DNA of 64,000 bases from an uncultured Enterobacteriaceae bacterium (GTDB lineage: Bacteria > Desulfobacterota > Binatia > Bin18). The position numbers were made by a program, and so were the translations under genes. The stretch is from positions 9,312 to 73,311 of the forward strand of contig CAYTVL010000006.1 of the NCBI GenBank assembly GCA_964441775.1, written 5' to 3'. The notes below the pieces were generated by a model. The model did no database searches. It worked only from the letters and a program-made list of their open reading frames with translations, and was not told the DNA's origin. Shown piece by piece: positions 9,709-60,691 of this stretch. The first letter of the stretch is position 1. Each line of letters opens with the position of its first letter.

Positions 9709-9722
9709 GCGTTAGTCTTGCC

Positions 9723-46294: not shown

Positions 46295-46340
46295 AGACGC
46301 CCGTCACGTTGGTCTGGTGGGAGTCGTCTTAAACGTGCTC

Positions 46341-46850: not shown

Positions 46851-46851
46851 A

Positions 46852-48408
46852 TTGAGCGCCAGCCTCTCTCCTCAGGTGCTCGCGCAACTGAGCCAGCGCA
46901 TCGAAGCGTGGATGGGCGTCTATTTTCCCCTGGAACGCTGGCCGGATCTTGAGCGCAAGCTGCACGAAGCCGCAGCCGACTTCGGCTGTGTTGATGTAGA
47001 GGAGTGCGCTCGCTTGCTCACGACTGCTCCAATTACAAAACACCAGCTTGATGTGTTGGCGACCACGCTCACCGTGGGAGAAACCTATTTCTTTCGTGAA
47101 CCAAGCAGCCTGGAAATTGTCGAACGCGACCTCCTGCCAAAATTGTTGCAAGAGCGGCGCGCCGTTGACCAACGTCTCCGGGTCTGGAGCGCAGCGTGTT
47201 GCACGGGAGAAGAGCCCTATTCCATCGCGATCATGCTCCATCGCTTGTTGCCTGATCTGCCTTCTTGGAAGCTGACGTTGCTCGCCACGGACATTAACCC
47301 GAGATTTTTGCAGAAAGCAACTGAAGGCGCATATGGCCAGTGGTCGTTTCGCACCGTGTCCCCCACTTTACAAGAGCAGTATTTTTGCCGGACGCCAAGC
47401 GGACGCTACGCTATTCAGCCGGTGCTCAAACAGATGGTGAAGTTCGCCCGACTCAACCTGGCGGAAGACCAGTATCCTTCTCCCCTGAATGACACCACCG
47501 GCATGGATATCATCTTTTGCCGAAACGTCTTGATTTATTTTGCTGCGGAGCGGACCAAGCGCGTAATTGAGAATTTCTATCGCGCCCTCGCCGTCGGCGG
47601 CTGGTTCATCGTGAGCGCCGTGGAGACCGCGCTGGTGATGGACTCTCCCTTTACTCCGGTCCAGTTCCCTGGCGTGACTCTGTTCCGCAAAGATCCAGAG
47701 CGACTCTCGCTTTCTGTGCCAGCCGCCTCATTTCTCGGTGAGCCCACGCTTGAGCCGTCCGCGCCGCCAAGCCCGGCGCTCTCCGTCGCCGAGACGTTGG
47801 AAAAATTTTTCAACGTTGTCTCCGCGGCTTCTTTCGAGCACGACATTCATCAAGCCGAAACTGCTCCGTCAGAACTGCCACAAACGCTCACGCTTCAGAC
47901 GTATGAAGAGGCCCAGTATCTGTACACAGGGGGCCGCTATGCGGAGGCCATCGAGAAACTGTCCGCCATTTGTTGGGATGGACCGGCGGAGACGTTCCCC
48001 TTTCCAGCGGCGCGCGAACAAGGCATGACGTTGCTTACTCGCGCGTATGCCAATCAAGGGCAACTCGCCGAAGCACAATTGTGGTGCGACCGGGCGCTCG
48101 CGGTGAACACGCTCGATCCTGTGCTTCACTATTTGCGCGCCACGATTGCGCTAGAGTACGGGCAGGAGACCGAAGCCCTGTCTTCGCTGACTCGCGCCGT
48201 GTCACTTGACCAACGCTTTGTCCTCGCCCATTTCGTCCTGGGCGTTCTAGCGCGCCAACGTCACAACCAGCAGGAAGCACGGGAGCATTTTTCCGCGGCG
48301 CTGACGCTTTTGCGCCAACATCATCCAGACGACGTTCTGCCGCATTCCGAAGGGATGTCGGCGGGCCGACTGGCTCACATCCTCGTGGAGATGAACAAGG
48401 AACAGTAA
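46852..48408 (+). CDS. cheR: Chemotaxis methyltransferase CheR with C-terminal TPR repeats
   Basis: CheR N-terminal helical domain and an SAM-MTase domain ('RVWSAACCTGEEPYSIAIML' and 'DIIFCRNVLIYF'). The C-terminal ~150 aa are TPR-like. Confidence 0.85.
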   Translation: MSASLSPQVLAQLSQRIEAWMGVYFPLERWPDLERKLHEAAADFGCVDVEECARLLTTAPITKHQLDVLATTLTVGETYFFREPSSLEIVERDLLPKLLQERRAVDQRLRVWSAACCTGEEPYSIAIMLHRLLPDLPSWKLTLLATDINPRFLQKATEGAYGQWSFRTVSPTLQEQYFCRTPSGRYAIQPVLKQMVKFARLNLAEDQYPSPLNDTTGMDIIFCRNVLIYFAAERTKRVIENFYRALAVGGWFIVSAVETALVMDSPFTPVQFPGVTLFRKDPERLSLSVPAASFLGEPTLEPSAPPSPALSVAETLEKFFNVVSAASFEHDIHQAETAPSELPQTLTLQTYEEAQYLYTGGRYAEAIEKLSAICWDGPAETFPFPAAREQGMTLLTRAYANQGQLAEAQLWCDRALAVNTLDPVLHYLRATIALEYGQETEALSSLTRAVSLDQRFVLAHFVLGVLARQRHNQQEAREHFSAALTLLRQHHPDDVLPHSEGMSAGRLAHILVEMNKEQ

Positions 48409-48413
48409 CGGAA

Positions 48414-49046
48414 GTGACACGTATGAAAAGGGATAATCTTTCCGCCACCCTCGCACCTGAGCAAGCTGCCGCCGTTCCGGCTGCGACGCCGAGCGATACT
48501 GAATATATGTTGACACTGACTCCTCAACAAAAGCAATGCATTTTAGCAGAGCGCGCCGTTGCGCTCGCGCAAGGCAAGGAGAAAGACGCCGAACAAGGAG
48601 CAACGCTGCGCCTCGTCGAGTTTACACTCGCCCAACAGCGCTACGCCGTCGAGACTTGTTATGTCCGAGAAGTGCAGCATGTCACGAGCATTACCCCGAT
48701 CCCTTGTACGCCGGTCTTTGTGTTAGGCGTGATCGGCGTCCGAGGACGCATTCTTTCGGTGATTGATCTGCTGGCGTTTTTCGATCATCCCCAGGCTCGC
48801 GTTTCAGAAGGCGGTACGGTGATCGTCTTCGGGACGGAAGAACTCGAAGTCGGAGTGCTTGTGGATGGTATTCTCGGCGCACACACCGTCTCCTTGCAGG
48901 ACATCCGTTCCGCGCCTGCGGGTCTCTCCAGCATCCGCCGAGAATACTTACGGGGCGTCGGGAAGGAGCAACTGCTCTTGCTGGATATCGAGCGACTGTT
49001 CTCGGACGAGCGCATGCTCATCGGTGCCGACGAGACAGAGATCTGA
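48414..49046 (+). CDS. cheW: CheW-like coupling protein (second copy)
   Basis: CheW domain ('FVLGVIGVRGRILSVIDLLAFF'). Confidence 0.8.
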   Translation: MTRMKRDNLSATLAPEQAAAVPAATPSDTEYMLTLTPQQKQCILAERAVALAQGKEKDAEQGATLRLVEFTLAQQRYAVETCYVREVQHVTSITPIPCTPVFVLGVIGVRGRILSVIDLLAFFDHPQARVSEGGTVIVFGTEELEVGVLVDGILGAHTVSLQDIRSAPAGLSSIRREYLRGVGKEQLLLLDIERLFSDERMLIGADETEI

Positions 49047-49105
49047 AATGAATAAGTTTGCCGCCAGGCGGGACACCGCAACTTACGGAAAAGAGGAATC
49101 TCTCT

Positions 49106-51280
49106 ATGCAACGTGCAATCGAACGAGCCGTTGAATATGCCATGAAATACCTGAAGGTCTGGCAGAAGCTCGGCTTTCTGGGCGTCGTGTTCCTCATCCC
49201 TTTGACCATCTTCATGTTCAAGACCATTGCCGCCATGCGCCTGACCGGCGTGGATTTGGCGAGACAAGAGGCGCTGGGCGTGGACTATCTCGTGTCTTTA
49301 CAAAGTTTGCTGGAAAATGTGCAGCAACATCGAGAATTAGAAGCGGCGCTGCTCAGCGGTGATGCGAACGTTGGCGAGCAGGTCACGGCGAAACAAGCTG
49401 TGATTCAGGACGAGCTGAAAAAAGTCGATGCGGTAGACGAGAAAACAGGGGAAGCACTCCTGGCGACCAATCATTGGACGGCGTTGAGAAAACGGGTCGC
49501 GCGGCTTCTGGAGAGTAATCCAAAAGAAAAAGTGCAGGAAAACTTCGAACAGCACACCGCCGTCATCAAAGACTTGCTCGCTTTCATGGTGGTTATAGAA
49601 GACACCTCTAAATTAGCGTTGGACCCTCACCTTGCCAGCGCCAGTCTGGTCGATTTGTTCGCGCGGAAACTCCCGCAACTGAATGAAACACTGAGTCAAG
49701 CGCGAGGGATAGGAATGGGCGTCGCCGTCCGCAAAAACAAAACGGAGGAAGAACGAGTAAAGCTGAGCAAACTCGGCGCGTTGATCGAAGTGCGCCTGCA
49801 AGAAGCCCAGCAGGGGTTGGAAAAGGTTTTCGCCTATGACAATCGCCTGCGCAGCAAATTGGGGACGACCGGGGCGGAGTTGTTGAATGACGAGAACAGC
49901 ACCATCGATCTGTTCAGTCGTCAACTCCTCACTGCGTCGGCAATCCCGGCGGCGGCTTCCGAGGCCGTGATTGCCGCAAGCGCAAATCCGCTGGTCGCAA
50001 GTTTTGCGTTGACCCGACAAACCGGGGCCGCACTCGCCGATGCGCTGCATACACGCGAGAAGACTCTCTCCTGGGAAATGTACACCATGCTCAGTTGGAT
50101 TTTCGTGGGCGTGATTGTGGTGACGCTCATCGGCGTGGTCGTGGTCCGCGACATCACCGATCCGCTGCGGCGCGTGGTGCGAGTCGCCGAGCAAATCGCC
50201 CAAGGCGACCTTTCGGTTTCCGTGTCGACAGATGACCGGTCGGACGAATTCGGCGCGCTCCTCGCCTCTTTCCAACGCATGACCAAATCGCTGCAAGACA
50301 TGGCGCTCGCGGCTGAGCGCATCGCTCGGGGCGATCTGAGCGTTAGCATCGAGCCGCAGTCGCCGAAAGATATGATGGGCAACGTCCTTTCGAGACTCGT
50401 CCACAGTTTGCGAGAGATGACCGAGCAGATTCAAACAGGGACCGATCTCTTGAGCTCTACAACGAACGAAATCCTTGCCGCCACCACGCAAGTGGCTGCT
50501 GGCGCCACGCAAACCGCTTCCGCCGTGACCGAAACGGCGGCCACTGTGGAGCAAGTGAAACAAACCTCTTTCATCGCCAGCCAAAAAGCGAAAAGCGTGG
50601 CCGAAAGCGCGCAAGTCACCGCGCAAGTCTCGCGCGCGGGAGAACAATCAGTGAGTTACGCTATCAGTCGCATGGAGCGGATTCGCGAGCAAATGGAATC
50701 CATTGCTGATAGCGTAATCAAACTTGGAGAGCAAAGTCGCGCGATTGGCGAGATCATTACTTCGGTGAATGACTTGGCGGACCAATCGAATTTGCTTTCT
50801 GTTAATGCGGCCATTGAAGCTGCGAATGCGGGTGAGCATGGCAAAGGCTTCACGGTCGTCGCACAAGAAGTGAAGAGCCTGGCCGAACAATCAAAGCAGG
50901 CCACTGCACAAGTGCGCACGATTCTCAGAGATATTCAAAAGGCTACGAATGTCGCGGTGATGGTGACTGAACAAGGAACCAAAGCCGTGGAAGCTGGCGT
51001 TTCTCAGTCGCTTGAAGCTGGTGGTTCGATTCGCATGCTCGCCAAGAGCATGGCGGAAGCGGCGCAAGCAGTTGCGCAAATTGCCGCCTCCAGCCAGCAG
51101 CAAGTTGTCGGTATGGACCAGGTCGTGATTGCGATCGAAAGCATCAAAGAAGCGAGCAACCAGAACGTGACCAGCGTGAATCAGGTGGAGAAGAGCATGC
51201 ATCGCCTGCTCGATCTTGGTCAACAATTACAACAACTAGTCGGACGCTACAAATTGCACGGCGCCACGGCGCAAGCATAG
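49106..51280 (+). CDS. Methyl-accepting chemotaxis protein with tandem HAMP domains
   Basis: Two HAMP-like segments (DPLRRVVRVAEQIAQGDLSV and LQDMALAAERIARGDLSV) and the MCP signalling domain 'LADQSNLLSVNAAIEAANAG'. Start at ATG 49106, which has the better RBS. Confidence 0.85.
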   Translation: MQRAIERAVEYAMKYLKVWQKLGFLGVVFLIPLTIFMFKTIAAMRLTGVDLARQEALGVDYLVSLQSLLENVQQHRELEAALLSGDANVGEQVTAKQAVIQDELKKVDAVDEKTGEALLATNHWTALRKRVARLLESNPKEKVQENFEQHTAVIKDLLAFMVVIEDTSKLALDPHLASASLVDLFARKLPQLNETLSQARGIGMGVAVRKNKTEEERVKLSKLGALIEVRLQEAQQGLEKVFAYDNRLRSKLGTTGAELLNDENSTIDLFSRQLLTASAIPAAASEAVIAASANPLVASFALTRQTGAALADALHTREKTLSWEMYTMLSWIFVGVIVVTLIGVVVVRDITDPLRRVVRVAEQIAQGDLSVSVSTDDRSDEFGALLASFQRMTKSLQDMALAAERIARGDLSVSIEPQSPKDMMGNVLSRLVHSLREMTEQIQTGTDLLSSTTNEILAATTQVAAGATQTASAVTETAATVEQVKQTSFIASQKAKSVAESAQVTAQVSRAGEQSVSYAISRMERIREQMESIADSVIKLGEQSRAIGEIITSVNDLADQSNLLSVNAAIEAANAGEHGKGFTVVAQEVKSLAEQSKQATAQVRTILRDIQKATNVAVMVTEQGTKAVEAGVSQSLEAGGSIRMLAKSMAEAAQAVAQIAASSQQQVVGMDQVVIAIESIKEASNQNVTSVNQVEKSMHRLLDLGQQLQQLVGRYKLHGATAQA

Positions 51281-51298
51281 GCAAACAAGGATCTTGGC

Positions 51299-54200
51299 AT
51301 GGATACAAAAGACACTGCCTTGTTAGCGAAGTTACGGGGTCTGTTTGGAATGGAAGCGGAAGAGCGGCTGCAGGTCATCACCAGCAGTTTGCTGGCGCTG
51401 GAGCAACAGCCCTCCGCTCAGACCCACACCGAGCTGGTCGAGACGCTCTTTCGCGAAGTGCATACCCTCAAGGGCGCCGCGCGCGCGGTGAGCCTGAGCG
51501 ACATTGAAGCCATCAGTCAGGCCGTGGAGAACGTCTGCGCCGGGCTCAAACGCAAGACGGTGACGGCGGGACCGGAGTTATTTGACACCTTTCATCGGGC
51601 AATGGATCTGGTGCGGCAGTTGAGTGCGGCGCCCGAGGGGGTCACGGCGCAGCAGATTGCGGACGTACTCGCGGCCATTACGCACGCCGAAGAACACGCC
51701 CAAGGACCGCAAGCCTGGCAGGCTCAACAAACTCAGTCTGCCCCGCCCACGCTGACCTTTCAACAAGATGACGACGTTCCGTCCGCTTCTCAACTCATGA
51801 CCCAGGGGACTCCGTCTACGATCACAGGCGAAGCACAAGACTCTTTGTTAGCGAAGTTACGGGGTCTGTTTGGAATGGAAGCGGAAGAGCGGCTGCAGGT
51901 CATCACCAGCAGTTTGCTGGCGCTGGAGCAACAGCCCTCCGCTCAGACCCACACCGAGCTGGTCGAGACGCTCTTTCGCGAAGTGCATACCCTCAAGGGC
52001 GCCGCGCGCGCGGTGAGCCTGAGCGACATTGAAGCCATCAGTCAGGCCGTGGAGAACGTCTGCGCCGGGCTCAAACGCAAGACGGTGACGGCGGGACCGG
52101 AGTTATTTGACACCTTTCATCGGGCAATGGATCTGGTGCGGCAGTTGAGTGCGGCGCCCGAGGGGGTCACGGCGCAGCAGATTGCGGACGTACTCGCGGC
52201 CATTACGCACGCCGAAGAACACGCCCAGGCTCAGTCTGCTCTACCCACACCGGCCCTGACAAGCATCGAACAATTCACATCGGCCACACCGACCACACCG
52301 GAGCCTGCACAAACACAAATCGTAGAGGCGCTTCAGCCAGTCGAGATCCACGAGGACTCTGCCGCAAACGACGACGCACCCTCGCCAAAAGCAAAAAAGA
52401 AACGGCTGCCGCGCGCAGCCGCCGCTCCTCGCCAAACCGCGGCCCGGCAACCCCGAGCCGCGAAGAAAAAGGCTACGATTGAACCGTCCGTTGCCCTGAA
52501 CGAAAGTGAAGCAGCAGCTTCAGGAAATACGGAGGACAACGTACAACTTGTTGACATAAATCCGCACGAGACGCTCGCCGCCAGTGAACCGGTGGAAGTC
52601 GCAGCGCCCGAGCCGACTCCAGTACAACCACCAGCGGCAATGCCGCAGCTCGAACGCCTGACGCCTCCGCTTGCGACCGCGCGCAAGCTGGAACCGCTCG
52701 TCGATTTCAGAGAAAAAGTAGACAAGAACAAGAAAAAGAAAAGCGGCGCCACGTCTACGGAGACGGTCCGCATCGAGGCGTCCAAGCTGGACGCGCTGTT
52801 TCTCCAAGCCGAGGAAATGCTGACCGTCAAACTCAAAACCAACGAACATGCCTCGGAGCTGCGCGAACTGGGGACCATGTTGGAAGCGTGGAAGCGAGAA
52901 TGGGCGAAAGTCCACATGCACCTCCGCAAAGCGCAAGGGTTGGTGGAAAAAGAAGAGAACCGCACCTCTCCTGATCCGATCTACGCGCAAACCGCCAAAC
53001 TTGTTGAATTTTTGAACTGGACGCAGGACCATTTTCGCATCGTGGACCGTACGCTGACGCGGATGGTGAAAGGCCTGGCGAAGGATCAACAGTCCTTAGG
53101 GAGCATGGTCGATATCCTTTTAGAAGACGCCAAAAAAATTCTTCTGATGCCGTTTGCGTCCGCACTCGAAGTGCTGCCTAGAATGGTGCGGGATCTTTCG
53201 CGCACCCAGGGTAAAGAGGTGGAGTTCATGCTCCAGGGAGAAGAGGTCGAAATAGACAAACGGATCCTGGAAGCCATCAAAGATCCGTTGATTCATCTGC
53301 TGCGCAATTGCATCGATCACGGGATCGAGCTGCCAGCGGAACGAGCGCAGTGGAGCAAAGCGCCACGCGGTTCCCTGTCGGTCGCCATCGCGCCAAGCGA
53401 TGGCAACACAGTGGAAATCATTGTGTCAGACGACGGCGCTGGTATTGATGTGGAGAAAGTCAAAAAAGCGGCGGTGGCCTGCGATGCCCTTTCACAAGAA
53501 GCGGCGGCGTTGCTCTCGGATCAGGAAGCGATTGCCTTGATCTTTCAGTCCGAAGTCTCTACCAGTGACGCCGTGAGTGATATTTCGGGGCGCGGGCTGG
53601 GCATGGCCATCGTTCGGGAAAAAGTCGAAAAACTTGGTGGTTCCATCGCCGTGGAAACTCAGCTCCATCAGGGCACGACCTTCCGACTGCGCTTGCCGCT
53701 GACGTTGGCGACCTTTCGCGGCATTCTCGTACAGATCGCGGGACAAGCGTTCATCGCGCCCACGGCGAATGTTGAACGCATGGTGCGGGTCAAACGGGGC
53801 GTGGCGATACAGACCAGTGGAGGGAAAGAAACCCTCTCCCTTGCCGGCTACACGCTGCCTTTCACACAGCTTGACCGAGTGCTGGGCCTCGCCTCGCCAA
53901 TGCCCACGGTTGCAAAAGAGCGATTTCAACTCGCGTTGGTCGTGGGGCAAGATGAGCGGCAAGTCGCTTTTGGCGTAGATGCTGTCATGGACGAACAAGA
54001 AGTACTGTTCAAAAGTCTCGGTCAACAACTCGTGCGGGTGCGGAATATCGCGGGTGCCACGGTTTTGGGCTCGGGGCAAATCGTCCCAATCCTCAATATC
54101 AACGATCTGTTGGCCGCCGTGAACACCGCAACGTTCTCGTCTACAAAAGTCATACACCAAACGCCCAAAGCGGACCTCCAGAAGAAAAAGATTTTGGTGG

Positions 54201-54544
54201 CGGAAGACTCGATCACCTCACGAATGTTGCTCAAAGAGATTCTCGAATCCGCAGGCTATGTGGTGTCAACGGCGATTGACGGAGAAGACGCGTTTACGAC
54301 CTTGCAGAAGAACTCGTTCGACCTCGTGGTGTCCGATGTGGAAATGCCGCGCGTGGACGGGTTTTCTTTGACGGGGAAAATTCGTAGTGATGAACGTTAT
54401 ACCCAATTGCCGGTGGTCCTGGTGACTGGCTTGGAGTCGCAAGGAGATCGTGAGCGTGGCGTCGCGGTGGGCGCCAGCGCCTACGTGGTCAAGGGCAGTT
54501 TTGACCAAAGCAACTTATTGGAGACGATTCGTCGCTTAATCTAA
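51299..54544 (+). CDS. cheA: CheA-type histidine kinase with duplicated N-terminal Hpt (P1) domains and a C-terminal receiver (CheA-CheY hybrid)
   Basis: Two identical Hpt segments ('HTLKGAARAV'), a dimerisation domain and an HATPase (DHGIE...DDGAGID...GRGLGMAIV). A CheW-like P5 domain precedes the REC ('ILVAEDS', 'DLVVSDVEMP'). Confidence 0.9.
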   Translation: MDTKDTALLAKLRGLFGMEAEERLQVITSSLLALEQQPSAQTHTELVETLFREVHTLKGAARAVSLSDIEAISQAVENVCAGLKRKTVTAGPELFDTFHRAMDLVRQLSAAPEGVTAQQIADVLAAITHAEEHAQGPQAWQAQQTQSAPPTLTFQQDDDVPSASQLMTQGTPSTITGEAQDSLLAKLRGLFGMEAEERLQVITSSLLALEQQPSAQTHTELVETLFREVHTLKGAARAVSLSDIEAISQAVENVCAGLKRKTVTAGPELFDTFHRAMDLVRQLSAAPEGVTAQQIADVLAAITHAEEHAQAQSALPTPALTSIEQFTSATPTTPEPAQTQIVEALQPVEIHEDSAANDDAPSPKAKKKRLPRAAAAPRQTAARQPRAAKKKATIEPSVALNESEAAASGNTEDNVQLVDINPHETLAASEPVEVAAPEPTPVQPPAAMPQLERLTPPLATARKLEPLVDFREKVDKNKKKKSGATSTETVRIEASKLDALFLQAEEMLTVKLKTNEHASELRELGTMLEAWKREWAKVHMHLRKAQGLVEKEENRTSPDPIYAQTAKLVEFLNWTQDHFRIVDRTLTRMVKGLAKDQQSLGSMVDILLEDAKKILLMPFASALEVLPRMVRDLSRTQGKEVEFMLQGEEVEIDKRILEAIKDPLIHLLRNCIDHGIELPAERAQWSKAPRGSLSVAIAPSDGNTVEIIVSDDGAGIDVEKVKKAAVACDALSQEAAALLSDQEAIALIFQSEVSTSDAVSDISGRGLGMAIVREKVEKLGGSIAVETQLHQGTTFRLRLPLTLATFRGILVQIAGQAFIAPTANVERMVRVKRGVAIQTSGGKETLSLAGYTLPFTQLDRVLGLASPMPTVAKERFQLALVVGQDERQVAFGVDAVMDEQEVLFKSLGQQLVRVRNIAGATVLGSGQIVPILNINDLLAAVNTATFSSTKVIHQTPKADLQKKKILVAEDSITSRMLLKEILESAGYVVSTAIDGEDAFTTLQKNSFDLVVSDVEMPRVDGFSLTGKIRSDERYTQLPVVLVTGLESQGDRERGVAVGASAYVVKGSFDQSNLLETIRRLI
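51320..52227 (+). repeat. Perfect in-frame tandem duplication inside cheA (383-bp identical copies at 51320-51702 and 51845-52227, period 525 bp)
   Basis: Identical nucleotide strings at both ends and in the middle of the copies. The encoded 127 aa are identical. Confidence 0.85.
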
Positions 54545-54566
54545 GAAGGGGCTCACGGGTTGTCAT

Positions 54567-55658
54567 ATGTCTGTGGTTCGCGTGCTCATCGTTGAAGACT
54601 CGCTGGTGGAACGCACCTTGATGGTGAGTCTTCTCAGCGCTGACCCCGAAATCGAAGTCGTGGGGGCAGTGCCGAGCGGCGCAGCCGCGCTCTCGTTTCT
54701 CAAGCAGCAACGGCCCGATGTTATTACCATGGACATCACCATGCCGGACTTGAATGGGTACGAAACGACGCGGCGCATTATGGAAACGACGCCAGTGCCG
54801 ATTATTATCGTTGGCGAAAGATGGAGTGTTGAGGAAGGGGACGCTTCCCCCGTGTTCGATACCGGAGCCGTCGCCGAGCTACAGAAACCTTCCGGCGTAG
54901 GCAGCCTCGACTATGAAGAAGAGGCAAAACGGTTTGTTCAGACGGTGAAAGCGATGGCGGAGGTCAAGGTAGTAAGGCGCTGGGCGCGTCATCGCCATCG
55001 ACGGAACGAAGGGGACTCAAAACCAGAAGCTCTTGCCTTGGACGTTGCTCCTCCTCAAGAGCGAAAAGACCTGCATGTGGTGGCGGTTGGGTCTTCTACG
55101 GGCGGGCCAGCCGTATTGCAAACTGTTTTAGCACATTTACGCAAGGATTTTGCTTTGCCAGTCGTTATTGCTCAACATATTGCTCCAGGATTTCTCGACG
55201 GTCTCACGAAATGGTTGGGACAGACCACGGGGCACAAGGTGCAGATTGCCATGCAACGAGAACGACTGGCGCCGGGGCACATCTATCTGGCCCCAGATGG
55301 GTTACAGATGGGAGTCGAGCCGCCAGGCGTCATTGTCCTTCGAAAAGACGCCCTCGAACATGGCATGCGGCCCGCGGTGTCCTACCTGTTCCGGTCCGTG
55401 ATGAGTGCGTTCGGCAAAAACGCCGTAGGGGTGTTGCTCACGGGCATGGGACGAGACGGCGCGGAGGAGCTCAAGCAAATGCGGGAGACGGGGTCTCTCA
55501 CGATTGCCCAAGACCAAGCCACCTCCATTGTCTTTGGCATGCCAGGAGAAGCGGTCAAGCTGGGCGCGGCCATGTATGTGCTGCCGCCGGAAAAAATTGC
55601 AGCGCTTTTGAACGATATGATGGACTGTTCCACCACCGCCGGTCTCAGCGCTTCTTGA
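54567..55658 (+). CDS. cheB: Chemotaxis response regulator protein-glutamate methylesterase CheB
   Basis: REC domain ('VLIVEDS', 'DVITMDITMP') and a methylesterase domain ('GSSTGGP' and 'GMGRDGA'). Confidence 0.9.
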   Translation: MSVVRVLIVEDSLVERTLMVSLLSADPEIEVVGAVPSGAAALSFLKQQRPDVITMDITMPDLNGYETTRRIMETTPVPIIIVGERWSVEEGDASPVFDTGAVAELQKPSGVGSLDYEEEAKRFVQTVKAMAEVKVVRRWARHRHRRNEGDSKPEALALDVAPPQERKDLHVVAVGSSTGGPAVLQTVLAHLRKDFALPVVIAQHIAPGFLDGLTKWLGQTTGHKVQIAMQRERLAPGHIYLAPDGLQMGVEPPGVIVLRKDALEHGMRPAVSYLFRSVMSAFGKNAVGVLLTGMGRDGAEELKQMRETGSLTIAQDQATSIVFGMPGEAVKLGAAMYVLPPEKIAALLNDMMDCSTTAGLSAS

Positions 55659-55664
55659 GGCGAG

Positions 55665-56819
55665 GTGCGGAACAGGAATGAGCGTATGAGTGCAAAAAAG
55701 ACCATCCTCATTGTAGAAGGAAGCCGGACGCAAGCCGAGCGGTTGAGGCTTGTGTTGGAGGCATACGACTATGCCGTGAGCATGGCGACGGCCAGCAGTG
55801 AAGCGCTCGTCGCCGCACGCGCGCAACAACCTGCGCTCATCATCAGCGGCGTCGCCCTGGCAGGAACAGACGGCTTAGATGGGTATGAGATGTGTGCGGC
55901 GCTCAAGCGGGACAAGGAATTGCAGCAGATTCCAGTTGTTTTATTAACTGCGCTGTCGGATGTGGAAGACCTGCTGCGCTGTCTAAAATCGCGTGTCGAC
56001 TATTGCATCGCGAAGCCCTATCAAGAAGAAGAATTACTCGCCAGGATTTCCGCGATCCTCACCGGTCTGGTGCGCACCATTGGGCAAACGGAACGAGAAA
56101 ACCTTGAAGTGCTCCTGCGCGGAGAACGCGAAGTCATCGCCGCCGATCACCAGCAACTTGCACGCTTGCTCTTGTCAACTCACGAAAACTACAGCGTCTT
56201 GTTACGCCAGAATCGTGCGTTGTCCGCCACGCAACTTCAACTCAAAACGCAGAACCAGCATCTTCAAACAGAATGTGAGCGCCTGCAAACCGCGCTACGA
56301 CAAGCGCAAGAAGGAGAGACGACGCTTTCGACATCGCATGCAGTCGCAGTGGGAGCAAAAGATGGGGTCCACGGAGACGAAGAGAATCTCGTCTTGCTCG
56401 CGGATGACACTGCCGTCGGTCAAGTGTTGTTAAGAAGATTTCTCGAAAAATTAGGCTACCAAGTTGACATAATGCACGATGGTCTTGACGTCGTCAAGGC
56501 ATATAAAAAACGACGGTACGCGGCTGTGGTGATGGATGTTCAGTTGCCGACGCTGGACGGTTGTGAAGCCACGCGGCAGATTCGTCAACATGAATACTCC
56601 TGCGGACGACAGGTTCCCGTCATCGTGGTCGCGGCGTATGCGCAACCTCATGATGAGGAGCGCTGTTTGGCGGCAGGCGCCAACGAGTATTTGCTGAAGC
56701 CGGTAACGTTGGAAGCGTTGAAACGCATACTGACGTCACGGAGGTTACCCCTTTCATCATCAAATGGAAAAGACGCAGCGGGCGCACGCGGGTCCGCCAC
56801 TCGGACGGAGAGCTTGTGA
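55665..56819 (+). CDS. Tandem receiver protein: degenerate (non-phosphorylatable?) REC - coiled coil - canonical REC
   Basis: REC1 has 'ILIVEGS' and 'LIISGVALAGTDG', lacking the acidic pair and the phospho-Asp. REC2 has 'LLADDT', 'VVMDVQLPTLDG' and 'LLKP'. Confidence 0.75.
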   Translation: MRNRNERMSAKKTILIVEGSRTQAERLRLVLEAYDYAVSMATASSEALVAARAQQPALIISGVALAGTDGLDGYEMCAALKRDKELQQIPVVLLTALSDVEDLLRCLKSRVDYCIAKPYQEEELLARISAILTGLVRTIGQTERENLEVLLRGEREVIAADHQQLARLLLSTHENYSVLLRQNRALSATQLQLKTQNQHLQTECERLQTALRQAQEGETTLSTSHAVAVGAKDGVHGDEENLVLLADDTAVGQVLLRRFLEKLGYQVDIMHDGLDVVKAYKKRRYAAVVMDVQLPTLDGCEATRQIRQHEYSCGRQVPVIVVAAYAQPHDEERCLAAGANEYLLKPVTLEALKRILTSRRLPLSSSNGKDAAGARGSATRTESL

Positions 56820-58768
56820 GGAAAACCGTCGCTGCAGAAAATCTATCGCCCCTCTCCATGGCGCTACCGTCGCGAGAAAAAGGAAAAGAGCTATACGCGA
56901 TTGACTCGATACTGGCTCCGCCTCCTCGGGATCCCTACGAAATGGAGCGGGCCGAACTCGACGCGTATTTACAGAGCACCGAGTATTTCCCTACGAAGAC
57001 CAGTCTCCTCGAATTCGCTCGCCGTTATAATGTCCCGGTGAATGCGCGAACCCAACGCGAAGAGATCGTTCGTCTCTGCCTGCGCATGATTCACGATATT
57101 CCCGCGAGTTTCGCCGGCCTCCGTGCGGCGGAACGGCCTCCGGCTTCCCCGTCAACCGGCGGAGGCCCTGCCCGGCAAGCTTTAACGGACTTCTTCGTCG
57201 GGTCAAAGGTGGAAAGTCGAACCGACGAGAGGGGCAGCAAAAAACTGTCAACTGACCTCTTGGATACTATTTTGCGTTGCCACGAAGTCGGGTTATTACT
57301 CGCCCAAGCGCGTGGCGCCGATATCGAAATGTTCCGGCAGATCTTAGAGACGTGCGAGAGCCCCATCCAAACGCACGTGCGCTTCCTGAGTAATCTTGTC
57401 GATTTTGCGCGGCTGGAAGCCGAGCAATATGAATTCGCTCGTACGCCGTTTCGTCTGCGTGACTGTATCGGTGAAGCGCTGAAGCGACTAGCCTTTTCCG
57501 CTCATGCGAAGCAGCTAGAACTGTGCTACGATGTAAAATCTGACGTCCCCGAGCGCGTGGTGGGCGACCCAACGCGACTCCAAGAGGTCATTCTCCACCT
57601 TGTTGACAATGCCCTCAAATTCACTGAACAAGGCGAAGTGGTGCTTGAGGTCAAAAAAGCGGAACAATCCAGTCAATCGCCTGTGACCGCCCCAACCAAC
57701 TTCCAGGTTCAGGACTCGGACTCTTTTCTCTTGCACTTTTCCGTGCGCGACACTGGCGTAGGTATGCCGCTAGAACAACTCCAGTCCATAACCCAATTGT
57801 TCTTTTCGCAGGGTATGGACGCTCCGCCTCGGTTACGAGGCCTGGGGCTCACCATCGCGCACTGCTTGGTGAAGTCGATGGGGGGCGCGCTGGCGATGAG
57901 CAGTGAAGCGGCCAATGGGTCCATCTGCTCCTTTTCCGTGCGGCTCCACAATGAGAGAGCGCGTGGCAGTGGCGGGGCCATACACACGAGCGCCCTGGGT
58001 GATCGGCAAATTCTCGTGGTCGACGATAACGCCGCCTACCGACGTATTCTGCACGATTTGTTACTTTCTTGGGGCGCGCGCCCACATCTCGCCGCCAGTG
58101 GACGAGAAGCCTTGGCGATGTTGTATAAACAGCCAGAGGCTGAGCCTTTTGCCGCTATCGTGCTCGATGGTCATCTTGCGGATATGGAAGGATTTGCCTC
58201 AATAAGACGGCAACATCTCGCCGAGAACTCGCTCCTGGCTAGCCCCATGCTCATGATGTTGGCGTCAACCGACCCGAGAAAAGAGATCGAGCGTCGCCGC
58301 GAGTTGCAGGTCGCGGCGTTTCTGCACAAACCGATCTCTCCCGCTGAACTGCTCCACGCGCTGTTGGAAGCCTCGGTGTCTGGAACGGTGTTGCCGGAAG
58401 AGGAAGTGTTGGATCGTACTGCGTTGTGGGCGCTCGTCGCCGGAGATACGACGCTGCTACAGGAATTAATTGGCGTGTTCGAGCAGGATTGTGGACGCTT
58501 CTTCTTTGCCTTGCAGCACGCCGTGCTCATCGAGAACTATCGTGACGTTATGACCGCCGTTCATGCGCTCCAAGGGACGGCTAGTCACTTTGCCGCACGC
58601 GGAGTGCTGCGCATTTCGGCGGTGATCGAAAGTTTTAGTTGTCAGGGCGATTTTGCCCGCGTCCAAGAAGCCATGACCCAACTCGCCGCCGAACTCTCGC
58701 GGCTCAAAAGAGCGTTAGACGATTTGCAACGAGAATTGTCTAGTTCGTCAACTTCGAAAGACTTTTAA
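56816..58768 (+). CDS. Hybrid sensor kinase: novel N-terminal ~70-aa domain - HisKA - HATPase_c - REC - Hpt
   Basis: 'LSNLVDFARLEAEQYEF' HisKA X-region. HATPase 'DTGVGMP' and 'GLGLTIAHCLV'. REC 'ILVVDDN' and 'AIVLDGHL'. C-terminal Hpt-like helices. The N-terminal domain is paralogous to ORF 60245-60691. Confidence 0.8.
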   Translation: MRKTVAAENLSPLSMALPSREKGKELYAIDSILAPPPRDPYEMERAELDAYLQSTEYFPTKTSLLEFARRYNVPVNARTQREEIVRLCLRMIHDIPASFAGLRAAERPPASPSTGGGPARQALTDFFVGSKVESRTDERGSKKLSTDLLDTILRCHEVGLLLAQARGADIEMFRQILETCESPIQTHVRFLSNLVDFARLEAEQYEFARTPFRLRDCIGEALKRLAFSAHAKQLELCYDVKSDVPERVVGDPTRLQEVILHLVDNALKFTEQGEVVLEVKKAEQSSQSPVTAPTNFQVQDSDSFLLHFSVRDTGVGMPLEQLQSITQLFFSQGMDAPPRLRGLGLTIAHCLVKSMGGALAMSSEAANGSICSFSVRLHNERARGSGGAIHTSALGDRQILVVDDNAAYRRILHDLLLSWGARPHLAASGREALAMLYKQPEAEPFAAIVLDGHLADMEGFASIRRQHLAENSLLASPMLMMLASTDPRKEIERRRELQVAAFLHKPISPAELLHALLEASVSGTVLPEEEVLDRTALWALVAGDTTLLQELIGVFEQDCGRFFFALQHAVLIENYRDVMTAVHALQGTASHFAARGVLRISAVIESFSCQGDFARVQEAMTQLAAELSRLKRALDDLQRELSSSSTSKDF

Positions 58769-58854
58769 GTTTCACCACTTCTCCCCGATGGGTATCAATG
58801 CGGTGTCCCTCTAGCGACTCAGATCGCACGGGATACGGCATAGGAGGTTTACGT

Positions 58855-60336
58855 ATGACTGGGTTTGACCCTGTCGTGATTATGATAGTCGTGCTGACTG
58901 CCGCCATTGTGGTGCTCCTCATCCGGATGGTGACGCAATCCAACGCACAGAAACCCGGGGCGGTGCTCAAGGCTGGAGCGGCGGCTAACGGCCCGCCTTT
59001 TATTGGACAGAGCCTTTCGGATATGTCGGGCAAGCAGCCTTCAGGACCGCGCCTCAGTACGCCACGCGTTGACCAATCTCCGCCTCTGCTCCCAACGTTA
59101 GCGCCCGTTAACGAACGGAAAAGCGCGCCGCAGGAGCCCGCCATTCTTGACCTAGCCAAACGCGACACCGCATCTGAGCCGTCTCCGCAGCCAGAGCCGA
59201 GCTTGCTCGTAACGGACAGTGACGCCAAGGAAAAAGAACCGGAGCCCACGCTCACTGCTGGAATCGCCTATGGACGGCGAAAATCAGATCTCTTGAAAGA
59301 GGAGAACGTGCAGACCTTATTTTCTGATCTCAAAGGAGAACGTAAAGCTCGCTTTATCAGTTTCATCAACTTCAAAGGAGGAGTGGGCAAAAGCACGACC
59401 GCGGTGGAAACCGCCGCGAGTCTAGCAAAAAATTACGGGAAACGGGTGCTGCTTATTGACCTCGACCCGCAAACGAACGCGACGTTCTATCTCATGGATC
59501 ATGGCGAGTGGGAGAGTTGGCAAAAGACGAACGGTTCGCTCAAGACTCTTTTCGACGCGTACCTCGCCGGGCAGGGCGACAGTTTCGACGTGTCCCGAAT
59601 CATCAAAAAGGATCTGCTGTGCCACGGCGGAGCCTCGCTCGCGCCTGGATTTGAACTCCTGCCCTCACATCTGGCGTTGGTGCAGATCGATATCCAACTC
59701 GCAGCCAAAGCTACGGTTGGCGAGTCGGTGTTCAGCAGTCAGGCTATTATTCGTCAAGCCTTGCAACGCGTGCAGGACCAATACGATTACGTTATTTTTG
59801 ACTGTCCGCCGAACTTCAATTTGGTGACGCAGAACGGCTTATTCGCCAGTGACGGGTATGTCATTCCCGCGATTCCCGATTATCTCTCCACCCTCGGCAT
59901 CAATTTGATCCAAGGAGAAGTCAATCGCTTCTCTGATCGCATCCGCCATGCCTTGGCCATGTTTGGCGGCACCTTCACCGGGCCCAAGCTGGAGGGCATT
60001 ATTTTTACCCGGGTGCGGTTGCGCAGTCGCTCGCCGTTACGATTTATCGATTTACATGAGCGACGCATTCATGAAGTCGTGCGCACCAATCCCGATGTCG
60101 TGTTCAAAAATTTCATCAGTGAGGCTGTGCGATTCGCTGAAGCGCCGGAGCGACAATTACCCGTCAGTCTTTCGCCGCGGATTGAAGATCGCGACGCGCG
60201 GAATGAGTTTATCCGGCTTGCCGAAGAGTTTATCCAACGCGTAGATGGAAAGGAGCTGTCCGGTGACGTCAATGAGCACACATGGGCTGGCGCAGAGGTT
60301 GGAGACTATCAGCAAAGCTTTGCGCGAGCTTCCTGA
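58855..60336 (+). CDS. Membrane-anchored ParA/MinD-family ATPase (ParC/PpfA-like, chemosensory-cluster associated)
   Basis: RBS AGGAGG 7 nt before ATG 58855. A TM helix ('VVIMIVVLTAAIVVLLI') and a ~150-aa Pro/Ser/Glu-rich linker. Deviant Walker A 'FKGGVGKSTTA' and 'LIDLDPQTNAT'. Confidence 0.75.
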   Translation: MTGFDPVVIMIVVLTAAIVVLLIRMVTQSNAQKPGAVLKAGAAANGPPFIGQSLSDMSGKQPSGPRLSTPRVDQSPPLLPTLAPVNERKSAPQEPAILDLAKRDTASEPSPQPEPSLLVTDSDAKEKEPEPTLTAGIAYGRRKSDLLKEENVQTLFSDLKGERKARFISFINFKGGVGKSTTAVETAASLAKNYGKRVLLIDLDPQTNATFYLMDHGEWESWQKTNGSLKTLFDAYLAGQGDSFDVSRIIKKDLLCHGGASLAPGFELLPSHLALVQIDIQLAAKATVGESVFSSQAIIRQALQRVQDQYDYVIFDCPPNFNLVTQNGLFASDGYVIPAIPDYLSTLGINLIQGEVNRFSDRIRHALAMFGGTFTGPKLEGIIFTRVRLRSRSPLRFIDLHERRIHEVVRTNPDVVFKNFISEAVRFAEAPERQLPVSLSPRIEDRDARNEFIRLAEEFIQRVDGKELSGDVNEHTWAGAEVGDYQQSFARAS

Positions 60337-60691
60337 TCAGAGCCTTGTTTCTTTCCTTCGACAGCTCCGGGTCTTTTCCAAAGAGCCGTCGGCCAGGCAA
60401 CGAACGAAAACAGCGGCGATCCTCCTTCCGCCTTCGCGCGACCCACGCCTTATGGATCGTGAAGAGCTCCAGGAGTATCTGTCCAGCAGTACGTCTTTTC
60501 CTCGGAAAGCTAATTTATTAACTTTTGCTCGGCGTTACAAGGTGCCGGTCAATATTCGCACCCCGCGTGAAGAAATCATCCGCCTCTGTTTACGAATGAT
60601 TCATGATATTCCTCGCGGGCTCAATGTGTTGCGTTTTCTCGCGGAACAGCACGAACCTCTCGATCCTCCCTCTCGTTTGGTCTTGCACTAG
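60245..60691 (+). CDS. Small protein carrying the same novel helix-extension-helix-like domain as the hybrid kinase N-terminus
   Basis: About 65% identity over ~70 aa to residues ~30-105 of the 56816 kinase (…LLxFARRYxVPVNxRTxREEIIRLCLRMIHDIP…). Overlaps the ParA-like gene's 3' end by ~60-90 bp, suggesting translational coupling. Alternative start at ATG 60272. Confidence 0.6.
   Translation: MERSCPVTSMSTHGLAQRLETISKALRELPDQSLVSFLRQLRVFSKEPSARQRTKTAAILLPPSRDPRLMDREELQEYLSSSTSFPRKANLLTFARRYKVPVNIRTPREEIIRLCLRMIHDIPRGLNVLRFLAEQHEPLDPPSRLVLH

Follow-up and report, generated by a model that had tools for sequence, protein, structure and literature searches.

The window, a stretch of 64,000 nucleotides, carries a hybrid kinase-like gene, a ParA/MinD-type ATPase gene and the gene of a small protein downstream of a chemosensory cluster, and the kinase and the small protein share a domain, here called the module. 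The arrangement is best explained, with about as much credence as doubt on our part, as a domesticated cassette of ParA and partner, the cargo-side domain of which has been grafted onto signalling enzymes, in a manner resembling ParC/ParP. As judged from sequence comparisons, the module of the partner has been copied, with part of the adjacent basic linker, to the N-terminal end of the kinase and also to an HD-GYP phosphodiesterase, and the Binatia-type ATPase has acquired a transmembrane helix at its N-terminus, followed by a disordered tether of ~80-145 aa.

The module is present in two paralogous copies

The genes and the two copies of the module are arranged as follows.

44633-56819, plus strand: upstream chemosensory cluster, Pfam hits above cut-off for every gene
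56816-58768, plus strand: hybrid kinase-like protein, 650 aa, identified by Pfam hits; its start and the stop of the REC-REC gene overlap in GTGA
56909-57124, plus strand: module copy 1, kinase residues 32-103, 64% identical to copy 2
58855-60336, plus strand: ParA/MinD-family ATPase, 493 aa, long (membrane-tethered) form (AAA_31 8.8e-41, CbiA 2e-18)
60263-60691, plus strand: small partner protein, 142 aa, overlapping the 3' end of the ATPase gene by 74 nt (60263-60336)
60419-60634, plus strand: module copy 2, partner residues 53-124, with H1, H2, an extended basic loop and a long H3

BLASTP aligns residues 31-103 of the kinase (ORF 56816-58768) with residues 58-130 of the small ORF as first called (60245-60691) without gaps, with 47 identities in 73 positions (64%, E 9e-29), in agreement with the ~65% given by an earlier sequence-only reading of this DNA, whose three ORFs all exist. 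The underlying 219-nt segments (56906-57124 and 60416-60634) are 62% identical, with 70, 77 and 40% identity at codon positions 1, 2 and 3, respectively; the same codon is used at just 20 of the 47 identical residues, and synonymous sites are nearly saturated. The copies are therefore old paralogues under purifying selection, as that reading had proposed. It had also placed the start of the second copy inside the 3' end of the ATPase gene; it is the small gene that begins there, the module itself starting 82 nt past the ATPase stop. A tblastn search found only these two copies in the window.

Copy 1 (AF2 pLDDT 82-86) is modelled with helices at residues 45-53, 61-70 and 81-106, which reproduce the pattern of copy 2 (pLDDT 79-94) with an offset of 27 residues. 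Across 29 sequences, the kinase copy included, 21 columns are invariant. The charged positions R72, K88, R108, E109, E110, R113, R117, D121 and R130 (counted from ATG 60245) are invariant in both paralogues, which points to a shared, conserved binding partner.

Comparison of the module with Pfam, NCBIfam, PHROG, PADLOC and PDB sequences gave nothing that reached threshold, fold searches gave no match above threshold or significance, and just 27 proteins came back from an exhaustive HMM scan that covered 1.84 billion representatives. The module is thus an uncharacterised three-helix domain, as first supposed. Three weak, convergent lines suggest a Rho_N/SAP-like helix-extended-helix fold. As in Rho_N, SAP and LEM domains, the module consists of a helix, an extended basic loop and a helix, with one more helix ahead, and the consensus of the wider family, L..LA..lGI..S.R.sK..lv..I, is in register with residues 12-43 of E. 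coli Rho. By contrast, H3 is far longer (~28 residues) than in those domains, and a strongly conserved signature of its own, FARRY.VPVN.RT.REEI.RLCLRMIHDIP, marks the Binatia-type module. The initial guess of a helix-extension-helix module is thus weakly supported, all sequence and structure matches lying under the family thresholds.

The weak Rho_N/SAP resemblance, together with the mobile-element contexts described below, fits equally well a module that binds nucleic acids. The partner would then be a ParB analogue, acting as a centromere- or nucleoid-binding adaptor in a type Ib-like cassette with a tethered ATPase that anchors or segregates DNA, and on the kinase and the HD-GYP protein the module would serve as a tether to DNA, perhaps to one common site, and not to the ATPase system. 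We regard this as distinctly improbable, given that all fold matches are below significance, that the net charge of the module is modest (+5 in the window partner, 0 in the kinase, +1 in the HD-GYP protein), that no iteron- or centromere-like repeat array lies beside any of the nine regions examined, the window included, and that a membrane-tethered ATPase is ill-suited to nucleoid-based partition.

Domain organization of the hybrid kinase

The kinase consists of the N-terminal module, a P/S/G-rich linker, a chimeric helix, and HATPase_c (residues 250-377; 2.5e-16), REC (399-516; Response_reg 4.3e-10) and Hpt (550-632; 3.5e-5) domains, the Hpt match being slightly under the cut-off (24.4 versus 24.6 bits). 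The N, G1 and G2 boxes are present. Pfam gave no HisKA match even at E<=10, and no further input domain besides the module. The module is also found on an HD-GYP phosphodiesterase, P0041 (DUF3391 at 4-190; HD_5 at 234-378, profile positions 23-168), and is therefore not specific to this kinase. The first ~185 residues of the kinase look chimeric and related to P0041 in sequence comparisons, and the two proteins have in common the following helix, for which AF2 confidence is low.

57245-57316, plus strand: helix LSTDLLDTILRCHEVGLLLAQARG, kinase residues 144-167, with candidate His 156, common to the start of HD_5 in P0041

Because HisKA is undetected and the N-terminus is chimeric, the competence of the kinase is uncertain.

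A membrane-tethered ATPase of a distinct ParA subfamily

For the ATPase, the likeliest start is ATG 58855, which is preceded by GGAGG, and not 58798. It comprises the following elements.

58870-58923, plus strand: N-terminal transmembrane helix, ATPase residues 6-23, followed by Arg/Lys
58924-59274, plus strand: P/S/A/T-rich, weakly conserved tether, residues 24-140
59347-60243, plus strand: ATPase core, residues 165-463, delimited by motif positions
59374-59397, plus strand: deviant Walker A motif, KGGVGKST
59449-59472, plus strand: DLDPQ motif
59788-59811, plus strand: Walker B motif, FDCPP
59800-59850, plus strand: subfamily signature DCPPNFNLVTQNGLFAS in the core
59875-59901, plus strand: subfamily signature PDYLSTLGI in the core

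The PDB relatives of the ATPase are Soj/ParA proteins. Its identity to the ATPases of related cassettes is 35-53%, versus 27% to a chromosomal Soj-type ParA, and the signatures DCPP..TQN and PD.LST.G are (nearly) invariant across seven cassettes from different phyla; on these grounds it is assigned to a distinct ParA subfamily. The N-terminal helix has a Kyte-Doolittle 19-residue mean of 2.2-3.1 in 45 of 49 long-form homologues, the other four being N-terminally truncated fragments, which bears out the proposal of a membrane-anchored ParA-like ATPase between the module copies, and the positive-inside rule predicts a cytoplasmic ATPase domain. The tether spans 82-144 aa across the long forms, with a similar composition and low sequence conservation, and is missing from the ~300-aa short-form ATPases. 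The long-form lineage consists entirely of sequences from uncultured organisms.

The small protein is an obligate partner of the ATPase

For the small gene, the most probable start is GTG 60263, which has AGGAG 8 nt upstream and corresponds to the start of most orthologues; some begin three codons further in, at the methionine of MSTHGLA. The 34 close partner clusters are all annotated 'hypothetical'. The protein (mean AF2 pLDDT, 73) has a two-part layout that is common to distant relatives. Ahead of the module, two segments are distinguished.

60275-60367, plus strand: family-wide N-terminal motif, partner residues 5-35, consensus THxLAxxLExxxxxLRxLPDxxL
60368-60436, plus strand: basic flexible linker, partner residues 36-58, ending in PPSRDP

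The N-terminal motif is kept in distant relatives even without gene overlap. It is modelled as helices (pLDDT ~70) with no net positive charge, unlike typical partner N-termini, which are basic and disordered. The linker has pLDDT <50 at model residues 46-57 (counted from ATG 60245), and most family members have a basic stretch at its position.

The partner was found directly downstream of an ATPase of the subfamily at every locus with context, across phyla and often overlapping (window, L001, L003, L004, L005/6/7/11, L008, L009/14, L010, L012, L013, L017, L018/19, L021, L022/23 and L025). Conversely, in an independently found set of 80 ParA relatives from viral contigs, the partner gene follows immediately on each of the five closest (34-39% identity); one at 26% is marginal, and 74 more distant ones lack it. 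With co-occurrence thus strict in both directions, as would be expected from the sequence-only reading, the small protein is, on genomic evidence, an obligate partner of this ParA subfamily.

The kinase and the HD-GYP protein match the partner HMM at positions ~30-127 only, and never at 1-28, where the N-terminal motif lies. Some kinase matches begin at 29-30, inside the linker, which aligns partly to kinase 'SREKGKE...APPPRDP'. In ParA/MinD partners the ATPase is contacted by the N-terminus and cargo is bound by the rest of the protein (PMC10241942, PMC11407121). On this precedent the N-terminal motif would be a likelier ATPase contact than the module, and the module is probably not the docking or ATPase-stimulating part that had been envisaged, as the kinase and the HD-GYP protein lack the motif.

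Were the module, with the adjacent basic linker, nevertheless to bind or stimulate the ATPase, the small protein and the kinase would each bind it and might compete, and the N-terminal motif would serve something else, e.g. oligomerisation. The strict co-occurrence, the unusual conservation of both module and ATPase core, and the part of the basic linker kept ahead of the kinase module ('SREKGKE', 'QQKKGKE') are in line with such docking. It is unlikely in view of the precedent of contact by the extreme N-terminus, of the absence from both enzymes of the most widely conserved N-terminal element, and of kinases P0036 and P0038, which have no basic patch ahead of the module. Because the basic stretch is partly kept, the kinase may still contact the ATPase directly.

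Genomic context of the cassette

The chemosensory cluster encodes, in order, MCP, CheW, CheR-TPR, CheW, MCP-HAMP, CheA-REC (with two Hpt domains), CheB and the REC-REC protein, an order repeated in L001, L003, L005/6/11, L012 and L015. The pair is not tied to this context, contrary to the earlier description of a Che-cluster module. In sister lineages it follows atpC, with neither kinase nor Che genes, and distant pairs adjoin integrases or a plasmid Rep gene, or have phage-like or conjugative-element surroundings. In other phyla, a soluble ~300-aa ATPase and a ~130-150-aa partner form a two-gene cassette that lies on integrative elements, on plasmid-like contigs or in further mobile contexts. 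The pair was apparently taken over from mobile elements as a domesticated cassette; since it is found without kinase or Che genes, it constitutes the core, and the kinase module is a lineage-specific addition.

The kinase module could, on the other hand, be a shuffling relic of an HD-GYP-type N-terminus, with an adjacency due to chance in genome rearrangement and a pair that positions unrelated cargo. The sister lineages without kinase and the P0041-like start of the kinase agree with this, as do the 4-kb contig of P0041, on which it does not adjoin ParA, and a simple tree, in which the kinase module falls outside the nest of co-resident small proteins. Such a relic is very improbable, as the kinase-ATPase-partner order is kept in 6/6 independent Che-context assemblies, purifying selection on the kinase module is strong (83% mean identity among kinase copies) with the same charged positions invariant in both paralogues, and the 87-nt gap between kinase and ATPase genes, in which a scan found no terminator-like site, suggests co-transcription. 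After the small gene, the scan likewise found no terminator-like site, and an RNA-fold hairpin no better than shuffled sequence is followed by a promoter-like site; for this reason, the end of the transcription unit is one that we infer.

Comparison with known systems

ParC/ParP is the chemotaxis-array positioning system of Vibrio, ParC being named PpfA in Rhodobacter sphaeroides; the CheW-like domain of ParP is shared with CheW and CheA, and thus with the array that it positions. As in that system, genes for a ParA/MinD-type ATPase and a small partner lie at the distal end of the che operon, behind cheA-cheB. The partner is again bipartite: it has a flexible Pro-rich/basic linker besides its N-terminal part, and its C-terminal domain (CheW-like in ParP, the module here) recurs in a signalling protein of the same operon. 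By contrast, the small protein of the window has no CheW-like domain, the nearest relatives of the ATPase are mobile-element ParAs and not ParC, the ATPase has a transmembrane helix of its own in place of the nucleoid or a polar anchor, and a soluble hybrid kinase takes the place of the chemoreceptor array as presumed cargo. The ParC/ParP-style arrangement proposed earlier is thus a reasonable analogy in logic, but the pair predates its association with Che genes and exists without them.

Type Ib partition cassettes (TP228 ParF/ParG, pSM19035 delta/omega, pCXC100 ParA/ParB) combine a small ParA with a small centromere-binding protein. The short-form cassette is similar in that a ~300-aa ParA lacking an N-terminal HTH precedes a partner of ~130-150 aa that contains a flexible basic segment, and in L030, a plasmid-like contig, the pair directly follows a Rep_3 replication initiator. 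The partner, however, is all-helical in the AF2 model, whereas the known type Ib centromere-binding proteins have a ribbon-helix-helix fold that it lacks (PMC3074162), centromere-like repeats were not found in the nine regions, and the window version is chromosomal, membrane-tethered and inside a signalling operon.

McdA/McdB and other ParA/MinD cargo-adaptor pairs share with the window the two-gene ATPase-plus-adaptor layout, the ATPase gene beside a putative cargo, and a partner expected to reach the ATPase by its N-terminal region and the cargo by the rest (PMC10241942, PMC11407121). They differ in their attachment to the matrix, which in the window takes the form of a transmembrane helix at the N-terminus, joined by a long tether, and is neither a MinD-like C-terminal amphipathic helix nor a ParA-like basic DNA-binding surface, and in that here the cargo-side domain of the adaptor is physically duplicated onto candidate cargo proteins.

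Proposed mechanism

According to the domesticated-cassette explanation, the ATP-bound, membrane-tethered ATPase dimer would bind the partner via its conserved N-terminal motif and/or the basic linker, leaving the C-terminal module as the putative cargo-side domain. The kinase would be drawn to the same place as the partner because it carries the same highly constrained module, which may pair with the partner module or bind the same ligand. In this way the ATPase-partner pair would localise or gate a sensor-less Che output kinase at the membrane. The domain shared by kinase and partner thereby points to a possible new link between a signalling enzyme and a ParA-type positioning system.

The three genes and the module shared by two of them

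Two genes that flank a ParA/MinD-family ATPase gene at the end of the chemosensory cluster encode copies of the same module, and the three open reading frames described in the sequence-only reading are all present in the window:

56816-58768 (+): hybrid kinase-like protein (the kinase), 650 aa, with module copy 1 at residues 32-103
58855-60336 (+): ParA/MinD-family protein (the ATPase), 493 aa, a long form with a predicted N-terminal transmembrane helix
60263-60691 (+): small protein (the partner), 142 aa, with an N-motif (residues 5-35), a basic linker (36-58) and module copy 2 (53-124)

The protein between the two module copies is a ParA/MinD ATPase, as proposed, with matches to AAA_31 (E = 8.8e-41) and CbiA (E = 2e-18) and a deviant Walker A motif, KGGVGKST. 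Its start is most likely the ATG at 58855, which has GGAGG upstream and gives 493 aa; the small gene most likely starts at the GTG at 60263, with AGGAG upstream, and encodes 142 aa. Most orthologues of the small gene begin at the position of this GTG, and some three codons further in.

The identity of about 65% claimed for the shared domain was reproduced by BLASTP, which aligns kinase residues 31-103 with residues 58-130 of the small ORF without gaps (47 of 73 positions identical, E = 9e-29). The corresponding DNA segments are 62% identical overall and 40% identical at third codon positions, and the same codon is used at 20 of the 47 identical residues. As had been supposed, the module copies are therefore old paralogues under purifying selection and not the product of a recent duplication. 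A tblastn search found no third copy in the window, and no Pfam or NCBIfam model covers the module.

The kinase gene lies downstream of a complete chemosensory cluster, composed of genes for an MCP, CheW, CheR-TPR, CheW, MCP-HAMP, CheA-REC, CheB and a REC-REC protein, and its start overlaps the stop of the REC-REC gene. There is no terminator-like site in the 87-nt gap between the kinase and ATPase genes. A terminator scan after the small gene flagged nothing; the RNA hairpin predicted 3' of this gene is no better than shuffled sequence (z = -1.39) and is followed by a promoter-like site. From this layout we infer that the three genes are likely co-transcribed with the Che genes. No Rfam family was found in the window. 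Just 3' of the partner, two related assemblies have, on the minus strand, a gene for H-NOX (HNOB) and another kinase/receiver gene (L001, 10583-12014; L012, ~9440-11175); the window lacks these genes and has an Amidohydro_2 gene directly after the partner instead. The CheA gene contains a tandem repeat:

51299-54544: CheA gene
51320-51619 and 51845-52144: tandem duplication within CheA with a period of 525 nt and 100% identity across 300 nt or more

Through this perfect duplication, which could be very recent or an assembly artefact, CheA carries two identical Hpt domains. Extra Hpt copies are also found in CheA orthologues, such as the 1271-aa CheA of L001.

The small protein is paired with a ParA subfamily

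In a word-indexed search, 5.8 billion proteins yielded 34 close clusters of the small protein, all short and either unnamed or annotated as 'hypothetical'. An exhaustive HMM scan of 1.84 billion representatives returned 27 proteins, comprising close small proteins, five kinase clusters, one 468-aa HD-GYP protein and about 15 distant small proteins (~130-150 aa); because the partner profile is Binatia-biased and would miss divergent partners in so large a database, this count is a lower bound on the family. One match, P0056 (1205 aa, E = 6e-4), was rejected as spurious, being a NACHT/HEAT-repeat protein whose repeats mimic the N-motif. Six loci were present among 185,579 species-representative genomes, in metagenome-assembled genomes (MAGs) labelled Candidatus Binatia, Methylomirabilota or with a placeholder.

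A ParA-like gene is located directly upstream of every family member with readable surroundings, often overlapping it, in the following contexts.

Genomic contexts of the ATPase-partner pair (L-numbers are related loci in other assemblies)
Context A, end of the Che cluster: window, L001, L003, L005/6/11, L012, L010+L015
Context B, atpC - ATPase - partner, then a convergent MoxR gene, kinase and Che genes absent: L004, L008, L009/14, L013
Distant cassettes: L017, L018/19, L021, L022/23, L025 (Tumebacillus algifaecis)

Context B is that of a sister lineage, in which the long-form pair directly follows atpC, the final gene of the operon for F1Fo ATP synthase, and precedes a convergent gene for a MoxR-type AAA protein; the pair is distinct from the chromosomal parAB. 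In L022 (132-1637) and L023, a gene for a 501-aa HATPase_c_3 protein (MORC/GHKL-type) ends 4 nt before the ATPase start; this protein could be a third component in that lineage.

The linkage was also analyzed from the ATPase side in 80 viral-contig loci, collected with an alignment of the C-terminal half of the ATPase (without Walker A), by searching all ORFs with the partner HMMs. The five closest ATPases (34-39% identity) have a partner immediately downstream in 5/5 cases (E = 1e-13 to 6e-35), one ATPase at 26% identity has a marginal partner match, and no partner was found in the other 74 of the 80 loci. Together with the partner-side contexts, this indicates that the pairing is subfamily-specific in both directions. 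The co-occurrence of the module with ParA-like ATPases in other genomes, on which the earlier proposal depended, is thus seen from both sides, and by gene neighbourhood a distinct ParA subfamily has the small protein as its obligate partner. A tblastn search of PLSDB plasmids with two distant partners and a blastn search of E. coli genomes with one distant partner gave no match.

The module had been thought to start inside the 3' end of the ATPase gene. The overlap belongs instead to the small gene, and the module starts 82 nt past the ATPase stop:

60263-60336: out-of-frame overlap of 74 nt, in which the C-terminal tail of the ATPase (...QQSFARAS, then the stop) and the partner N-motif share DNA

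The ATPase tail (residues 464-493), encoded by the same DNA as the N-motif, is acidic to neutral, and its ...ARAS end before the stop is kept in both lineages, A and B. The N-motif is conserved also in cassettes in which the two genes do not overlap, so that the frame of the small gene is the selected one; the conserved tail is probably a by-product of this selection.

A predicted membrane-tethered form of an ATPase of probable mobile-element origin

ATPase residues 173-181 (FKGGVGKST) form a deviant Walker A motif with the signature N-terminal lysine, invariant in all cassette ATPases, and the Walker A' and Walker B aspartates are present in DLDPQ and FDCPP. The AAA_31 and CbiA matches score 140 bits (cut-off 27) and 66.9 bits (cut-off 25.4), and the closest PDB sequences are Soj/ParA. 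Cassette ATPases are 35-53% identical to the core of the window protein, versus ~27% to a chromosomal Soj-type ParA, and share the further invariant signatures DCPP..TQN and PD.LST.G. In NCBIfam the best partial matches are to RepA/ParA partition models and score far below cut-off in every case, and the nearest relatives among the sequences compared are mobile-element ParAs. Two size classes were recovered in a search with the ATPase: long forms of 450-520 aa in about 50 clusters, those with a name being labelled Binatia, and short forms of ~300 aa, of which there are more than 1,600, drawn from many phyla. A defence-system reading was set aside, since in PADLOC and PHROGs the ATPase matches only generic ParA and the partner gives nothing meaningful.

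Long forms have an N-terminal hydrophobic helix (residues 6-23 in the window protein, followed by Arg/Lys) and, between helix and core, a poorly conserved P/S/A/T-rich segment of 82-144 aa. The membrane anchor predicted in the sequence-only reading is a feature of the group: helix and segment occur in 45 of 49 long forms, the other four being N-terminally truncated fragments. Hydrophobicity and the positive-inside rule indicate that the ATPase domain should be cytoplasmic and membrane-tethered. In canonical matrix attachment, MinD uses a C-terminal amphipathic membrane-targeting helix and ParA a basic DNA-binding surface. The literature on membrane-anchored ParA-like ATPases provided nothing relevant, and no ParA with a built-in transmembrane anchor and tether was found in the literature searched.

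In short-form cassettes the ATPase measures 300-336 aa and the partner 127-151 aa, and the two genes overlap by up to 26 nt or lie at most 36 nt apart. Their surroundings are those of mobile elements. P4-type tyrosine integrases are directly upstream in L027-29, a Rep_3 replication initiator in L030 (a rep-parA-'parB' layout), a phage portal gene lies close by in L031, and genes for T4SS coupling proteins lie close by in L018. In L025, a DUF4062 protein and a Mu-like transposase/TniB adjoin the cassette after the partner:

CP022657, 3288410-3289799: Tumebacillus algifaecis cassette (L025), 318-aa ATPase and 148-aa partner CIG75_14195

T. algifaecis is a cultured Firmicute and a tractable organism that holds the basic short-form cassette. 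These sequences are most simply explained by domestication, in the Binatia-type lineage, of a ParA-partner cassette from a mobile element. There the ATPase acquired its N-terminal helix and P/S/A/T-rich segment, and copies of the C-terminal module of the partner passed to other proteins.

Partner anatomy and fold of the module

In AF2 models the partner is all-helical, without an N-terminal beta strand. The N-motif (residues 5-35; THxLAxxLExxxxxLRxLPDxxL across the family) forms helices with pLDDT ~70, and leads into a flexible basic linker (pLDDT <50) that ends in PPxRDP. The module itself (pLDDT 79-94) has three helices, H1 to H3; the third is long and is separated from H2 by an extended basic loop. 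The kinase copy has the same three predicted helices, offset by exactly 27 residues (pLDDT 82-86). In an alignment of 29 sequences that takes in the kinase copy, 21 columns do not vary and many of these are charged, which speaks for a conserved binding partner that the two paralogues have in common.

The suggested resemblance to Rho_N/SAP-like helix-extension-helix (HeH) modules is plausible but unproven. In its favour, 4 of 10 distant members give sub-threshold Rho_N/SAP matches (E = 0.005-0.5; 10.7-16.9 bits against cut-offs of 23.9-24.9), and hhalign places H2-loop-H3 of the wide family profile in register on residues 12-43 of E. coli Rho (residues 1-61 searched; P = 9e-4, probability 22%). 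No profile match exceeds threshold; the window module does not match PF07498 or PF02037, Foldseek against PDB and BFVD gave nothing significant, and neither did a sequence-profile search of PDB.

A DNA-binding role of the module would fit both this resemblance and the mobile-element origin of the cassette. We nevertheless regard it as quite unlikely: the kinase module is electrically neutral, a membrane-tethered ATPase suits nucleoid-based partition poorly, and no centromere-like repeats lie beside the cassettes examined. An iteron/centromere search of nine regions around seven cassettes and the window found no multi-copy direct-repeat array, only two-copy matches at chance level, a search that divergent or distant sites would escape.

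The module on the kinase and on an HD-GYP protein

Besides the module, the kinase has no sensor domain. HATPase_c (60.5 bits) and Response_reg (40.2 bits) are both over cut-off, the N, G1 and G2 boxes are present as DNALKFT, DTGVG and GLGL, and Hpt is borderline (24.4 bits against a cut-off of 24.6). No HisKA-type Pfam match was found at E<=10 in kinase fragment 130-260 or in the homologous kinases P0038 and P0039, and only the second DHp helix aligns to BarA/TorS models. Kinase residues ~105-185, which include the helix LLDTILRCHEVGLLLAQAR with the candidate His156, match the DUF3391 end and HD_5 start of the HD-GYP protein P0041, in which the module is inserted within the DUF3391 region, ahead of the HD_5/HD-GYP domain:

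57130-57430: kinase residues ~105-205, homologous to P0041 (L016, 660-2066) up to the 'RCHE' helix

Given this match, the N-terminal third of the kinase appears chimeric, and the kinase N-terminus looks as if recombination had joined an HD-GYP N-terminus to the second DHp helix and the CA domain from a kinase like BarA/TorS. In the AF2 model of residues 1-400 the DHp region is unresolved, with confidence <50 around His156. P0039, a 624-aa kinase orthologue, has Gln in place of the candidate His and degenerate G1/G2 boxes but an intact N-terminal module, and is likely a pseudokinase that retains the module. The coincidence of His loss with box degeneration weakly favours His156 as a functional phospho-acceptor.

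The module is present on the kinases of all context-A loci. A simple neighbour-joining tree of 68 positions, not bootstrapped, groups the kinase modules in a single clade whose sister comprises every small-protein module of contexts A and B, with the HD-GYP copy splitting off at a deeper node; the duplication is thus at least as old as the A/B split. Kinase modules are on average 64% identical to those of the small proteins of either context, and the small-protein modules of A are on average 70% identical to those of B. Context-B genomes, which are incomplete MAGs, gave no kinase copy. That the kinase module bears no functional relation to the ATPase-partner pair is very unlikely, as synteny is conserved in six assemblies and the kinase copy is under strong constraint.

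An adaptor model

ParA/MinD partners contact the ATPase through their N-terminal region, while the rest associates with the cargo (PMC10241942, PMC11407121). The kinase and HD-GYP protein match only positions ~30-127 of the partner HMM and never positions 1-28. Both observations argue against the sequence-only proposal that the module itself docks onto or stimulates the ATPase, and suggest that it is the cargo-side domain. Direct docking is unlikely, although, in contrast to typical partner N-termini, the N-motif is predicted to be helical and is not basic overall, and the basic stretch sits in the linker, which some kinases partly retain.

An adaptor arrangement, built by analogy with these partners, is the model we favour and has in our estimate about an even chance of being correct. 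The N-terminal region of the partner would contact the ATPase, the shared module would serve as its cargo-side domain, and the kinase would join the system by pairing with the partner module or by binding the same ligand. Because the C-terminal domain of the obligate partner recurs on the kinase and the HD-GYP enzyme, these two are nominated as cargo or clients. A wider scenario is more doubtful: a ParA/MinD ATPase may have swapped its matrix from nucleoid to membrane through fusion to a transmembrane helix and a long disordered tether, after which a phosphorelay kinase and a c-di-GMP phosphodiesterase would have received the cargo domain of its mobile-element-derived partner. Homotypic domain sharing would then allow ATP-driven positioning or gating of individual soluble signalling enzymes in place of chromosomes, organelles or receptor arrays.

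Relation to known systems

A ParA/MinD ATPase and partner encoded beside their cargo are of a well-known general kind. ParC/ParP, to which the arrangement had been likened, is matched in part. As in ParC/ParP, the genes of ATPase and partner belong to the che operon and follow cheA/cheB, both in the window and in six related assemblies, and the system resembles ParC/ParP in logic, since ParP shares its CheW-like domain with its array. However, this location is absent in the atpC-context lineage and in mobile-element cassettes, and the small protein does not qualify as a ParP, which has a C-terminal CheW-like array-integration domain: neither CheW nor any other Pfam/NCBIfam match was found in it, whereas CheW is readily detected in neighbouring genes. 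Short-form cassettes have in common with type Ib plasmid partition systems a small ParA without a DNA-binding domain at its N-terminus and, behind it, the gene for a small partner. The window ATPase, however, is an extended 493-aa form, and the partner, helical throughout in the AF2 prediction, would not be the ribbon-helix-helix centromere-binding dimer of type Ib systems.

No description of this domain combination was found in the literature on ParA-like ATPases or Binatia in a chemotaxis, chemosensory or hybrid-kinase context, in line with the earlier supposition. Judged from sequence, what is new is an uncharacterised partner family that lacks a curated (Pfam) model and occurs on mobile elements of different phyla, a ParA that carries a transmembrane anchor and tether of its own, and the grafting of a partner domain onto a phosphorelay kinase and an HD-GYP enzyme, along with the apparent domestication of a partition-type cassette from mobile elements as part of a Che operon.

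In bacteria, large cargos such as chromosomes, plasmids, carboxysomes, flagella and chemoreceptor arrays are placed mainly by ParA/MinD ATPases, and for most 'orphan' members the identity of the cargo and the way in which specificity is encoded are an open question. For the ATPase of this locus, the sequences suggest an answer. If the link to the kinase is real, ParA-type spatial control would extend from large assemblies to single soluble signalling proteins.
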